From an uncultured Candidatus Saccharibacteria bacterium (GTDB taxonomy: Bacteria; Patescibacteriota; Minisyncoccia; Phycocordibacterales; DATDWN01), in the NCBI GenBank assembly GCA_964608465.1, contig CAZSNI010000004.1:1-41836 (forward strand): a DNA stretch of 41,836 nucleotides, read 5' to 3'. The stretch's first letter is position 1. Each line of letters starts with the position of its first letter. The notes under the pieces are model-generated. The model saw only the letters and a list, made by a program, of their open reading frames with translations, was not told the DNA's origin and made no database searches. Below, one piece after another: positions 38,552 to 41,749 of this stretch. A program made the position numbers and the translations under genes.

Positions 38552-38623
38552 TTGACAATATATACATACTATGCTATAGTATACGTAGTAAGTTATGTTT
38601 GGCATTCCGCCAAGCACAGGAGG
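38552..38623 (+). promoter_or_regulatory. Near-consensus sigma70 promoter and strong SD of the high-GC gene
   Basis: TTGACA (38552-38557), 17 bp, TGc-TATAGT (38575-38580); AGGAGG at 38618-38623, 5 nt before ATG 38629. Confidence 0.85.
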
Positions 38624-38628
38624 TTCCA

Positions 38629-38904
38629 ATGCGCCACATCTGTCTCGATTGCCGCAAGTTCGTCTCGTTTGCCGACTCGATGCCTGCCGCGGGCCGCCCG
38701 GGTCGCGTCCACCGACCGAACCTCGGATGCCAGAAGAAGCACGCCGAAGCCGGTAAGGTCGTCACTCAGGTCCAGAAGCCCGTGGTCGTCGCCCTCAAGG
38801 TGCTCGACAACCAGTTCCACGGGAACTTCGGTCTCCGGCCGGGCCAGTTCAGGCTTCGTTCCGGCATGGTGGTGACTCCACCCGCTCGTCACACGTCGGC
38901 CTAG
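38629..38904 (+). CDS. High-GC 91-aa hypothetical protein with Cys/His motifs
   Basis: 74/91 codons end in G/C by manual count; AGGAGG SD; HICLDC...GCQKKH. Confidence 0.8.
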   Translation: MRHICLDCRKFVSFADSMPAAGRPGRVHRPNLGCQKKHAEAGKVVTQVQKPVVVALKVLDNQFHGNFGLRPGQFRLRSGMVVTPPARHTSA

Positions 38905-38925
38905 AAGGACGACGACACCGAGATC

Positions 38926-38967
38926 AGCTCGGCTCACATCAACTCGTTTGGTGAGAGTCGAGCTTTT
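38926..38967 (+). terminator. Intrinsic terminator of the high-GC unit
   Basis: AGCTCGGCTCAC...GTGAGAGTCGAGCT followed by a T-run. Confidence 0.7.
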
Positions 38968-39001: not shown

Positions 39002-39796
39002 ATGAAAATTATCTCTTGGAATGTAAATGGAATACGTGCGGTTCACAAGAAGGGTCTACTTGTGCCTTTTGTTGAAAAATACAAGCCAGACATTCTTTGC
39101 CTGCAAGAAACCAAGGCACAACAGGATCAAAGTGAGGTAGATTTACCTGATTACTCTGAGTATTGGAATTCTGCTGTGAAAAAGGGCTACAGTGGTACGG
39201 CTATTTTTACAAAAGAGGAACCAATATCTGTCGTACTAGATTTTCCTACTGATATTTTAAAAAAATACAAACTAGAGGATAAATACGGCGATCCAAACAC
39301 TGAAGGAAGAATAATAGTTGCGGAGTTTTCGGTTTTTTACCTTATAACTGTCTATACACCGAACTCAAAAGATGATTTGTCTCGAATTCCCCTAAGACAC
39401 AAGGGCTGGGACAAGGCATTTTTAGAATACGCACAAAAGCTTGAAAAGAAGAAACCAGTTATTTTTTGTGGGGATTTAAATGTTGCCCATACAGAGGACG
39501 ACCTGGCTCGCCCAAAGGAAAACGTTGGCAAAAAAGGTTTTACCTCTGAGGAACGTGAGGGAATTGATAACTTTATTAAAGCTGGTTTTGTAGATACATT
39601 TAGACTTTTCACAAAAGGAAATGGTTTTTACACTTGGTGGAGTAACTTTGGTGGTGCAAGAGAAAGAAATGTGGGTTGGAGAATAGATTATTTTTTTGTG
39701 AGTAATAAAATAAAAGAAAAAGTTAAACAAGCAAGAATTCATCCAGATATTTTAGGGTCGGATCACTGCCCTGTCTCTATAGAAATTGAAATCTAA
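39002..39796 (+). CDS. xth: Exodeoxyribonuclease III / AP endonuclease
   Basis: ISWNVNGIRA, LQETK, GDLNVAH, GWRIDYF, GSDHCPV. Confidence 0.95.
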   Translation: MKIISWNVNGIRAVHKKGLLVPFVEKYKPDILCLQETKAQQDQSEVDLPDYSEYWNSAVKKGYSGTAIFTKEEPISVVLDFPTDILKKYKLEDKYGDPNTEGRIIVAEFSVFYLITVYTPNSKDDLSRIPLRHKGWDKAFLEYAQKLEKKKPVIFCGDLNVAHTEDDLARPKENVGKKGFTSEEREGIDNFIKAGFVDTFRLFTKGNGFYTWWSNFGGARERNVGWRIDYFFVSNKIKEKVKQARIHPDILGSDHCPVSIEIEI

Positions 39797-39863
39797 TTTT
39801 AGTTTTCCACAGTTTTGTTTGATGTGTCCTTTACATTATTTTTTAAAAGACATAAACTAATTT

Positions 39864-40156
39864 CAGAACGTAGATTAGATGTCCGATATAATAAACCCTG
39901 TATCGGACTGACGTTCTGCAATTTGTTCTTTGTCGTGCGACCCATTTTGGGAGTCGGCCGACTCCCCTCTTAGAAGACTACTTGGTTTCCAATCAAGAAA
40001 TAGGTGTAAACGAACCCTCGCTATCTACTTATATCTTTGGAGTTCAGTTACAACATCTAGCTTCACGGATGCTGTGTAGGTCTTCTCTTCAAACCGCTCA
40101 ATGATGAGTATTCGTGCAAAGATAACGCACTAATATTGATTATTGGGCGGTTTTTT
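39864..40156 (+). ncRNA. Candidate ~290-nt structured non-coding RNA of unknown family
   Basis: TTTACA(39830-39835)-17-TAAACT(39853-39858) promoter points at the first base of a long hairpin; several helices; terminal hairpin plus T6; the one ATG I traced (39879) gives only 10 aa, and the track has no ORF starting before 40143. Confidence 0.55.
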
Positions 40157-40163
40157 AATTATA

Positions 40164-40280
40164 AAAGGCAAGATTCGGCCTATTTCTTCGTTGGAACTGC
40201 AAAATATTCGTCAATGTATTTCTACATACACCTCCTCATATTTTTTGTTCCGCCTTGAACTAGACTCAAATCCTGCCTTT
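40164..40280. ncRNA. Rod-like 117-nt hairpin with a central 17x17-nt bubble (6S-like or cca 3'-UTR structure)
   Basis: AAAGGCAAGATT/AATCCTGCCTTT, GGAAC/GTTCC, AAAATAT/ATATTTT and TGTAT/ATACA nested stems. Confidence 0.4.
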
Positions 40281-41749
40281 TATTTTACCTTGTGCGCAGA
40301 GCGAATTTTCTTTATTTCCTGCTCATCAGCCTCTTCTTTTGACATTTTCCCCTCCTCTCCCAGCGCTCTTAGTTCATTCTCAGGTAGATTAAATAGCTCT
40401 AAAGCTCTTTTCTCAAGATACTCCTCTGTATTTTTAGTAGGATCTTCCAAAACTTCCTCTAAAAGTGCATGCAAAGTAAAACCTATCTTAGGTCCTGGAG
40501 TAATTTTAGTAATTTCCATAATTTTTTTACCATCAATCTTTAACATTCCAACAGAAATCGGGTCCCGAAGAGCTTCTTCAATCATTGCGTGATATTTTCG
40601 GAGACGGTATGGGTCTTCTTTGGGTCTACCAGCCCCTATACGGTCGCATATGCGTAGATTCATGAGATCCCATATATTATCTCGTCCAACATTTACAATC
40701 ATTCTACGGACCGCTGAGAGGCTAATTTGCTCTGTGTCAGAAAAAAACATATGCCATCTAATCATTGATACAGTTTTTTCAATAATTTTTGTTGGATACT
40801 TTAATTTTTCAAGAATCTTTTTAGTTTTTCTTGCTCCAAGTACTTCGTGACCAAAAAAAGTCCATTGCTTATTCTTTCCCCCGCCCCTTCTAGTCTCTGG
40901 CTTAGAGATGTCATGAAAGAGTGCAGAAAGTCTTAGCTCTAGAGGGTACTCTTTATCTGCAGAGTGCTGTAATGACCTCAACAGATGTTCCCATACGTCA
41001 TAAGCATGTATACCTCCCTGCTCTACGCCTATAGCATCCTCTAGTTCTGGCACCACGTATTGCAAAACATTTAGTTTTTTCATGGTCAAAATCCCCTTCA
41101 TTGGGCTTTTTGACATAATTATTTTTGTAAACTCATCTCGAATTCTCTCTTTTGAGATATTTTCAAGTAAGTTAGCATTTTCTAGTATAGCCTTCTCTGT
41201 ATTTGGCTCGATATCAAACTCAAGTTCAGTACTTAGACGTATTGCTCTGAGAATTCTAAGGCCATCTTCTTTGAATCTGTGTTCCGCCTCCCCCACTGTT
41301 CTAACTATCTTGTCTTTTATATCCATCTTTCCATTGTAAAGGTCAATAACCTCATTCTTTAAGACAGAATATGCAAGACAGTTCATTGTGAAGTCTCTCC
41401 TTTTTAGGTCATCTTCAATTTTCTGGCTAAAAATAACAGTATCCGGGTGTCTATTGTCGGAATACTCCCCTTCTAGTCTATACGGGGTAACTTCAATAAC
41501 CTTTAGTGTCTCATTTTCTGACTCTATCTTTACTCCAACTGTTCCAAATGTATTTTCATAGAAAGAATCTGGAAAAAGTCTAGTTATTTTCTCAGGAGTC
41601 GCATTTGTCGTTACATCCCAGTCCTTAGGAGTTCTGTCTAATATCAGATCTCTAACACATCCTCCAACCAAAAAAGCCTCGAATCCCCCATCCTCGAGTG
41701 TTTCTATAACTTTTCTTACTTCATTTGGAATAGATAATTCTTTATTCAT
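40280..41749 (-). CDS. cca: CCA-adding enzyme / poly(A) polymerase family nucleotidyltransferase with HD domain
   Basis: LVGGCVRD, DWDVTT, RRDFTMN, EDGLRILRA, LFHDISKP. Confidence 0.88.
   Translation of the reverse strand: MNKELSIPNEVRKVIETLEDGGFEAFLVGGCVRDLILDRTPKDWDVTTNATPEKITRLFPDSFYENTFGTVGVKIESENETLKVIEVTPYRLEGEYSDNRHPDTVIFSQKIEDDLKRRDFTMNCLAYSVLKNEVIDLYNGKMDIKDKIVRTVGEAEHRFKEDGLRILRAIRLSTELEFDIEPNTEKAILENANLLENISKERIRDEFTKIIMSKSPMKGILTMKKLNVLQYVVPELEDAIGVEQGGIHAYDVWEHLLRSLQHSADKEYPLELRLSALFHDISKPETRRGGGKNKQWTFFGHEVLGARKTKKILEKLKYPTKIIEKTVSMIRWHMFFSDTEQISLSAVRRMIVNVGRDNIWDLMNLRICDRIGAGRPKEDPYRLRKYHAMIEEALRDPISVGMLKIDGKKIMEITKITPGPKIGFTLHALLEEVLEDPTKNTEEYLEKRALELFNLPENELRALGEEGKMSKEEADEQEIKKIRSAHKVK

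Follow-up and report, generated by a model that had tools for sequence, protein, structure and literature searches.

A candidate order-wide non-coding RNA of Parcubacteria/Paceibacteria carrying a boxA-like motif and a palindromic hairpin

Identification of a non-coding RNA gene between xth and cca

We analysed a stretch of 41,836 nucleotides (contig CAZSNI010000004.1 of assembly GCA_964608465.1, hereafter the window), in which the gap at 39797-40279, between the exonuclease III gene xth and the CCA-adding enzyme gene cca, contains an RNA element. Comparison with related genomes makes it very likely that this element is a real and previously undescribed non-coding RNA (ncRNA) gene of ~290 nt on the + strand, distributed order-wide in the Parcubacteria/Paceibacteria. 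A first-pass annotation, made from the letters of the window and a list of their open reading frames (ORFs), had proposed an unannotated ncRNA of this size with its own promoter and terminator, and the comparative data bear this out: all three are conserved together in 35 loci, with strong covariation and no conserved ORF. The RNA family is new, being absent from Rfam 15 and from the literature that could be searched.

The + strand RNA (39864-40156) folds at -98.7 kcal/mol with z = -6.24, and 0 of 200 dinucleotide shuffles fold as well, whereas the - strand folds more weakly (z = -3.41). The orientation is fixed by conserved U-G and G-U pairs, which would become A-C mismatches on the opposite strand. 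Such wobbles are found at three positions of the long rod-like hairpin described below (UG in 34/35, GU in 35/35 and UG in 27/35 homologues), and position 6:13 of the palindromic hairpin P3 is U-G in at least 11 sequences. The first-pass annotation had read the G-U wobbles of the first and last helices as favouring the + strand and two inner helices as favouring the - strand; the second of these readings is not upheld, the conserved G-U and U-G pairs lying on the + strand.

Covariation provides the second line of evidence. RNAalifold, run on a MAFFT alignment, recovered 35 pairs, 20 of them with compensatory changes. Because MAFFT mis-aligned the inner part of the rod between two sequence types, we built covariance models: R1 from 18 sequences, aligned to all 35 (alignment A5); R2 from the rod (domain D) in 35 sequences; and R3 from the 5' part, aligned to 45 homologues. 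With R3, 88.0% of cells are paired versus 66.9% in shuffles, double changes occur at 17 of 18 pairs, and the covariation score is 0.572 versus 0.231 (0/500 shuffles reach it). For domain D in alignment A5 the corresponding values are 87.5% versus 70.8%, double changes at 22 of 29 pairs, and a score of 0.456 versus 0.178 (again 0/500 shuffles), with slid-partner controls at 0.08-0.11. Covarying homologues, the finding by which the first-pass annotation had suggested its claim be checked, are thus recovered with both RNAalifold and three covariance-model alignments.

A coding gene was rejected, as no ORF is conserved in frame or position. The related proposal that the transcript is an mRNA, or a dual-function RNA, for a small protein could point to the 40-52-codon ORFs with TTG starts in the window copy. 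It is scarcely credible: every homologue has its longest ORFs in a different frame, with another start and another length, insertions and deletions are not multiples of three, and no pair of Shine-Dalgarno sequence and start codon is conserved.

Conservation and distribution

The element and its neighbours are arranged as follows.
39002-39796, + strand: xth (exonuclease III), the 5' neighbour of the gap.
39865..40156, + strand: predicted transcript of ~292 nt, delimited by the promoter and terminator positions, its full length conserved in 35 loci.
40280-41749, - strand: cca (CCA-adding enzyme), the 3' neighbour of the gap.

In a blastn search of 60 relatives, 33 of the 36 genomes from the same, 'Ca. 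Zambryskibacteria'-like genus carried the element, at 66-83% identity; the three same-genus genomes without it are 76-86% complete. An nhmmer profile matched 35 loci from 33 genomes end to end. Within the genus every copy of the element adjoins the 3' end of cca, usually after xth, and it fills many of the xth-cca gaps, as these are only 340-380 nt long. Model R2 matches 33 of 80 cca loci, comprising 33 of the 34 whose cca is at least 70% identical and none below that value. Among 301 genomes of the order it matches 15, which include all five genomes of the same family (four genera) and, at lower scores, members of seven other families. In the distant copies the DnaA-like box and the GTCCTTT promoter are retained, as are GUUCUUU, the rod, the terminator and a hairpin whose tip is GGCC or GCGC. 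The gene neighbourhood is less constant: one family has the RNA gene in inverted orientation between cca and xth, and in some genomes xth and cca are absent or re-oriented beside the element, with the promoter and terminator still kept.

To follow the 5' part of the gene, we used a strict composite pattern, TTATCCACA-N3-30-GTCCTTT-N70-100-GTTCTTT. Among 401 genomes of the order, 42 (36 of 223 genera) contain exactly one copy of it, and its reversed control has 0 matches. In 401 genomes sampled phylum-wide there is a single match, in a genome of the same order, and none among ~390 from other orders or classes. The true spread within the order should be wider, because the window's own copy fails the pattern by one mismatch in the box. 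The homologue L038 of genome G041 shares the promoter and boxA, yet is unmatched by R1, R2 and R3.

That genomes of 0.6-0.9 Mb, which have discarded the signal recognition particle (SRP) and most regulators, keep this gene and its promoter order-wide argues for an important function.

Promoter, upstream sites and terminator

The signals that flank the transcript are listed here.
39803..39811, + strand: DnaA-box-like site TTTTCCACA, 8/9 matches to TTATCCACA, 18 nt upstream of the -35.
39825..39858, + strand: promoter, in which TGTCCTTTA overlaps the -35 TTTACA (39830-39835), followed by a 17-nt spacer and the -10 TAAACT (39853-39858).
39844-39852, + strand: TAAAAGACA, the inverted partner of TGTCCTTTA, inside the 17-nt promoter spacer.
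40091..40156, + strand: intrinsic terminator, whose long hairpin AAACCGCUCAAUGAUGAGU...AUUAUUGGGCGGUUU runs into U6 (40151-40156).

The TTTACA-17-TAAACT promoter of the first-pass annotation is indeed found at 39830-39858, with 9/12 matches in a promoter scan. By itself such a match is not significant (5 such sites in the region versus 4.0 expected); it carries weight because it is conserved among the homologues. The conserved promoter is of the sigma-70 type. Across the 35 loci GTCCTTTAC is near-invariant in the promoter, the near-invariant TGTCCTTTACA includes the -35, and the -10 reads TAAACT, TACAAT or TAAAAT; the same module recurs across the order. The order of conserved elements is DnaA-box-like site, -35 block, -10, UUUCAGA start, transcript and GGGCGGUUUUUU. 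The predicted start is the A at 39865, 7 nt past the -10 and within the conserved UUUCAGA, and the predicted end lies in the U-run.

The consensus DnaA box is TTATCCACA, and this sequence stands exactly at the position of the DnaA-box-like site in nearly all homologues, as well as in distant families; in the homologue alignment AGTTATCCACA appears where the window has TTTTCCACA. By its likeness to the textbook consensus, it is a putative site of DnaA binding.

At the 3' end, the terminal hairpin (40091-40153) and T-run (T6, 40151-40156) are present as first described, and form a GC-rich stem followed by U6, as in an intrinsic terminator. A simple terminator scan missed it, because its loop and stem exceed the limits of the scan. 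The base of the stem covaries (CG in 25, AU in 5 and UA in 3 sequences at one pair; AU in 26 and GC in 6 at another), and its GGGCGGUUUUUU is near-invariant in the homologue alignment.

Both upstream motifs recur elsewhere in the source assembly (G000). TTATCCACA occurs 21 times versus ~8 expected by our own estimate from base composition (e.g., C8:19959, C9:874, C9:17733, C11:10229, C37:1552, and positions 2663 and 6712 of the window), and many copies lie 10-50 nt ahead of -35/-10-like hexamers. A general role in regulation close to promoters is thereby suggested, in this minimal genome, for DnaA or for another factor binding TTATCCACA. Besides the site at 39825 of the window, TGTCCTTTA is found at C7:19586 (-), C18:4958 and 4980 (+) and C10:8388 (-); one of these copies precedes the RNase P RNA gene (C7:19165-19500) by 86 nt, and two lie upstream of valS. 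The sites could represent the small regulon of some DNA-binding protein. The idea that TGTCCTTTA marks stable-RNA genes was rejected, since it also lies upstream of valS.

Architecture of the RNA

Between the start and the terminator hairpin the RNA comprises the following parts, in 5' to 3' order.
39870..39919, + strand: P1, a two-tier hairpin with outer helix, internal loop, inner helix and conserved loop.
39870-39874 with 39915-39919, + strand: P1 outer helix GUAGA/UCUGC, double changes at 7/7 pairs in 45 homologues.
39881-39889 with 39900-39908, + strand: P1 inner helix, 93% paired in 45 homologues (R3 alignment).
39890-39899, + strand: P1 conserved loop AAUAAACCCU, given as AUAAACCC in model R3.
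39924..39934, + strand: boxA-like motif UGUUCUUUGUC, single-stranded in the fold, with a GUUCUUU core.
39932..39948, + strand: variable spacer, here a small hairpin GUCGUGCGAC and then a U-run.
39949..39966, + strand: P3, an 18-nt perfect palindrome GGGAGUCGGCCGACUCCC, forming a 7-bp hairpin with the 4-nt self-complementary tip GGCC.
39972..40086, + strand: domain D, the rod, a long irregular hairpin of 115 nt (covariance-model alignment A5).
39972 (start) to 40086 (end), + strand: domain D closing helix AGAAG/CUUCU (alignment A5).
39983-39986 with 40071-40074, + strand: invariant tandem-wobble block UGGU/GCUG, part of the rod.
40021-40029, + strand: conserved CUAUCUACU of the rod apical loop, which also has a U-rich tract; the rod has three inner helices besides.

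Folds of the individual sequences agree with the two-tier form of P1. The 5' hairpin proposed at 39864-39918 is thus real, but its conserved outer helix is GUAGA/UCUGC and not CAGAACGU/ACGUUCUG. The P1 internal loop of ~6x6 nt (39875-39880 with 39909-39914) is nearly symmetric, with UUGAAU opposite UGAAUC in many relatives, and tandem sheared G-A pairs, a motif typically bound by proteins, could form in it. A long-range pairing of the 5' GUAGAU with a loop AUCUAC, seen by eye, was dropped: the loop is invariant in the family and absent in distant homologues.

The spacer after the boxA-like motif is, in most relatives, UUUGUAC/UGUGC plus a U-run, that is, GU-rich and boxC-like. A second palindromic element, P2, was considered as a general feature of this region and abandoned, as only a subset has it and most members have the GU-rich UUUGUAC/UGUGC there.

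The helix AGAAGAC.../...GTCTTCT that had been proposed to close the region 39972-40086 is present. The multibranch fold proposed inside it is the minimum-energy fold of the single sequence only; in this sequence the rod and the multibranch form differ by just 0.6 kcal/mol (-29.0 versus -29.6), and covariation in the 35 homologues backs the unbranched irregular hairpin, with which we therefore replaced it. In alignment A5 the apical loop of the rod reads CUAUCUACUAU followed by a U-run.

Some homologues have additional segments, namely an extra hairpin between boxA and the rod in L080 and L048, and an insertion of 35-45 nt within the terminator region in L026 and L009; these are positions where the predicted structure tolerates expansion.

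Comparison with known RNA families

A search of the whole window against Rfam 15 at the gathering score returned nothing except a tRNA, located where the contig ends. With the threshold relaxed to E<=10 for the region, and to E<=1 for 12 diverse homologues, the only matches were chance-level eukaryotic miRNA and snoRNA models; neither the region nor these homologues matched known ribozymes, riboswitches or the OLE, ROOL, GOLLD, raiA and HEARO families. The Rfam comparison that the first-pass annotation had named as a check on novelty thus leaves that novelty standing, together with its statement that the element is not tmRNA, RNase P RNA, SRP RNA or an intron. For the first two, the genuine genes of the genus lie elsewhere. 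In 16 genomes of the order (G000-G009 and G037-G042), RNase P RNA was found in 14, always at other loci (G000:C7:19165-19500 in the source assembly), and tmRNA above the family cut-off in 13, also at other loci; both identities were accordingly rejected. A divergent SRP RNA was rejected as well: the small and large SRP RNA models (RF00169, RF01854) and the Ffh M domain (PF02978) match 0 of the 16 genomes, the SRP-GTPase motif is absent from the ORFs of the source assembly, and SRP loss in Parcubacteria has already been published (PMC4508563).

The 6S RNA model RF00013 likewise matches none of the 16 genomes, nor the window at E<=10 or the 12 homologues at E<=1, and 6S RNA itself was rejected because the model finds no match and the domain layout does not fit. 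The vacancy leaves room for a functional analogue, an abundant RNA that would sequester the RNA polymerase holoenzyme and so fill the 6S gap. Like 6S RNA and Ms1, the ncRNA is a stand-alone, promoter-to-terminator, housekeeping-type transcript; it looks stable, has its own strong promoter, and its long rod includes a large open loop rich in U and A. It differs in having four separate domains within ~290 nt, ~100 nt more than 6S RNA, and no stem that joins its ends. Its open region forms a terminal loop, with closure on one side, in place of a central bubble flanked by two helices, and not even a weak match to RF00013 appears at E<=10. We regard such an analogue as improbable.

A self-cleaving or otherwise catalytic RNA appears more remote still. 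The large conserved structure with invariant unpaired nucleotides would suit a ribozyme, as would the conserved block of tandem G-U pairs, a kind that often binds metal ions. However, no known ribozyme family matches at E<=10, the string of hairpins offers no covariation-supported junction or pseudoknot to house an active site, and the genomic context suggests no substrate.

In general character the ncRNA resembles the OLE, ROOL, GOLLD, raiA and HEARO RNAs, which are also large, well-conserved, lineage-restricted and found by comparative genomics. Several of these large orphan RNAs form homo-oligomers, and self-association is a possible parallel. The present ncRNA differs in being smaller, a simpler string of hairpins, found in members of the candidate phyla radiation (CPR), and in carrying boxA.

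A boxA-like motif shared with rRNA leaders

Conservation along the RNA is highest in UGUUCUUU(G/A) at 39924-39932, a stretch that is unpaired in the fold. Its GUUCUUU is invariant or near-invariant in alignment A1, and is present in 7/7 distant homologues found via domain D alone, ~25-35 nt upstream of the rod. The Gram-positive type of boxA is UGUUCUUUGAAAA. The window copy, like all the others, agrees with the 7-nt core GYUCUUU, and relatives reach 10-11 of the 11 positions (e.g., GTTCTTTAAAA in L018) of the gamma-proteobacterial boxA consensus GYTCTTTAANA (PMC5725501). The setting also resembles that of boxA: the motif is unpaired, lies ~60 nt from the inferred start, follows P1 and precedes the GU-rich spacer and P3.

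The lineage's own rRNA operon (rrn) leaders offer a closer standard. Because the source metagenome-assembled genome has no 16S rRNA or rRNA operon, we used the leaders of its relatives. In three genomes of the same genus and several of the same order, the 16S leader has a hairpin and then (A)GUUCAUUGAAAAUU, GGUCUUUGAAA or CUUCUUUGAAAACUAAA. Genome G018 carries both kinds of site, and its rrn leader motif UAGUUCAUUGAAAAUUUGUUAC and ncRNA motif UAGUUCUUUAAAAUUGUAC are near-identical; the same rrn leader has a UUUGUUAC after its boxA that is similar to the spacer of the ncRNA. NusB (PF01029) is encoded in all 16 of the genomes searched, the source genome included; its partner S10 is a ribosomal protein, and we assume its presence.

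The ncRNA therefore resembles the boxA sites of rrn leaders and of lambda nut in its single-stranded G(U/C)UCUUU(A/G)A ~60 nt into an untranslated transcript, with a hairpin before the motif and a GU-rich stretch and another hairpin after it, in the near-identity of the motif to the rrn leader of a same-genus genome, and in the presence of NusB. It differs in being short and stand-alone, its terminator following ~230 nt later, whereas the boxA of rrn precedes kilobases of rRNA. The machinery of those systems is a complex of NusB-NusE/S10, NusA, NusG and SuhB.

Several facts weigh against reading the motif as a working Nus site. The short U-rich boxA word occurs 19 times by chance in the AT-rich genome, and the 3' half of the boxA consensus (AANA) is not kept in the window copy. 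The Rho signature motif was not found in the source assembly, which is 86% complete, so that classical anti-Rho antitermination may have no target here. Moreover, with a strong intrinsic terminator only ~230 nt after boxA, there is little to antiterminate. In view of the evidence on both sides, we take a functional link between Nus factors and this boxA to be plausible, with the balance about level.

The order's rRNA leaders (L139, L143, L144, L140, L142) themselves have a consensus promoter, a boxB-like hairpin and the boxA GUUCAUUGAAAA or GUCUUUGA(A/C)AA, and should be useful for defining a boxA consensus for the lineage. In 16/16 genomes the NusB domain (133 positions; G000:C1:6154-6543) lies inside open frames of ~300 aa, so that a further domain may be fused to NusB or follow it directly in the same frame.

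The palindromic hairpin P3 and self-pairing

The perfect 18-nt palindrome reported in the first-pass annotation, GGGAGTCGGCCGACTCCC, is found at 39949-39966. Its stem covaries at 7/7 pairs in alignment A9. When the pairing is continued through the tip without a loop, 93.9% of the cells in 33 unique 22-nt windows are paired, with double changes at 9/9 pairs; the two central pairs are Watson-Crick in 33/33 windows, with 7 and 10 double changes among the tips GGCC, GCGC, UGCA, GUAC and ACGU. On inspection, a palindromic tip was seen in 45 of the 46 unique members, the exception being L027. Distant families have palindromic tips of unrelated sequence after boxA (UCGGAUCCGA, GAAGUCGACUUC, GCGCGCGC, GCCGGC and AAACGUUU; the tip palindromes of these families include GAUC, UCGA and AACGUU), and some have 9-nt loops that hold UAGCUA or GCGC.

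A lone hairpin cannot contain the innermost pairs of P3, so that two RNA copies probably pair, and selection for pairing between two RNA molecules is probably the simplest reading of P3. A thermodynamic estimate for the isolated 22-mer puts the duplex at -43.7 versus 2 x -12.4 kcal/mol for the hairpins, favouring the 18-bp dimer by 18.9. This reading has two counts against it. The test windows were centred on the best palindrome, with 13 awkward sequences omitted (12 of these also have a GC-rich palindromic tip), and template-switch mutation, the main alternative, can also yield perfect palindromes. Overall, RNA-RNA self-pairing at P3 seems to us a serious possibility whose chances fall slightly short of even.

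Palindromic hairpins serve dimerisation in viruses, as in the HIV-1 dimerisation initiation site (DIS) and the coronavirus s2m element with its GUAC tip (PMC7357161, PMC12291111). The tip of P3 resembles these in being a GC-rich self-complementary 4-6-mer that stays palindromic despite sequence change, and the 9-nt loop with a 6-nt palindrome in some distant homologues recalls DIS in particular. The differences are that P3 belongs to a bacterial chromosomal ncRNA, that in the genus it is one uninterrupted palindrome, and that the dimer here is a predicted one. As the palindrome is uninterrupted and leaves only 4 nt at the tip, an extended duplex is favoured over a kissing complex.

A palindrome might also be a site in DNA. 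A DNA-binding protein site at P3 is unlikely, because the symmetry alone is conserved and not the sequence, and parS or a protein operator was rejected in view of the covariation and of a P3 sequence unrelated to parS. The window has no match to parS (TGTTNCACGTGAAACA) with up to 3 substitutions, and the sole parS-like site of the assembly is at C16:375. A broader form of this alternative casts the palindromes, the DnaA box and the TGTCCTTTA repeats as sites for protein binding or of an origin/centromere, or as convergent terminators of xth and cca. The DnaA-box-like site, the repeated 9-mers and the parS-like sites just downstream of the gene in other families would fit such an element, but we consider it very unlikely. 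The helices keep pairing while their sequence changes, which indicates selection on an RNA structure and not on a DNA site, and U-G wobbles fall systematically on the + strand. Furthermore, P3 bears no likeness to parS, the assembly's one parS-like site being on another contig, and the gene keeps its own promoter and terminator where xth and cca are absent or re-oriented.

The parS-like sequence of the source assembly, TGTTTCACGTGAAATA, lies on contig C16 (C16:205-375) beside DnaA boxes and tRNA genes; the origin/centromere is probably on this contig, as the sole parS-like site is there, near those boxes and tRNA genes. In the other families concerned (L162, L163), the site just downstream of the ncRNA gene is the parS-like TTTCACGTGAAA.

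A possible mechanism

Taken together, the best explanation combines both features in a stable, stand-alone RNA that would bind Nus factors, pair with itself and carry a rod acting in trans; we give this combination about an even chance of being correct. Under this model, the 5' third of the ncRNA would work as an rrn-leader/nut-type site, with NusB-S10 binding boxA as it emerges from the polymerase. This binding would either turn RNA polymerase into a Nus-modified, folding-assisting form for an untranslated ncRNA, or allow the finished ncRNA to hold Nus factors. Two finished molecules would then pair via the palindromic P3, and the rod domain and conserved loops would serve in trans as a protein-binding surface.

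A special case of this explanation makes binding, and not antitermination, the purpose: the ncRNA would be a decoy or sponge that titrates the boxA-binding pair NusB-S10 and so tunes rRNA transcription, with DnaA gating its synthesis and thereby linking ribosomes to replication. In its favour are the conservation of boxA, the highest of any element, the conserved DnaA-box-like site upstream, the presence of NusB in all sampled genomes and the small number of regulators in the genome. Against this, a single boxA per ~290 nt makes a poor sponge, and the conserved rod, P1 loop and palindromic hairpin are left unexplained. We consider the decoy unlikely, though the least unlikely of the rivals weighed here.

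A more elaborate version, somewhat more doubtful than the decoy, casts a homodimeric 'boxA RNA' as the hub of a small regulatory circuit in minimal cells that have neither SRP nor any detectable 6S RNA. DnaA and a TGTCCTTTA-binding factor would set its synthesis, and the RNA would capture NusB-S10 and perhaps other proteins bound to the rod, coupling rRNA transcription and ribosome assembly to replication. If so, the ncRNA would regulate the antitermination machinery as 6S RNA does RNA polymerase.

If the combined explanation is right, the biology of Nus factors would reach past rRNA, phage, suhB and CRISPR leaders to a boxA within a stand-alone RNA; a survey of Nus targets left the question of ncRNAs explicitly open (PMC5725501). 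A palindromic tip under selection would represent a natural bacterial chromosomal RNA homodimer and a good structural target. Hundreds of CPR genomes have an annotation gap here that the addition of the family to Rfam would fill.

A GC-rich island upstream of xth

Close to the ncRNA gene, positions 38552-38967 of the window form an island of 65% GC in a genome of 38% GC, situated between a Xer-like recombinase gene and xth. The island has no Rfam match and contains a near-consensus promoter, TTGACA-17-TATAGT.

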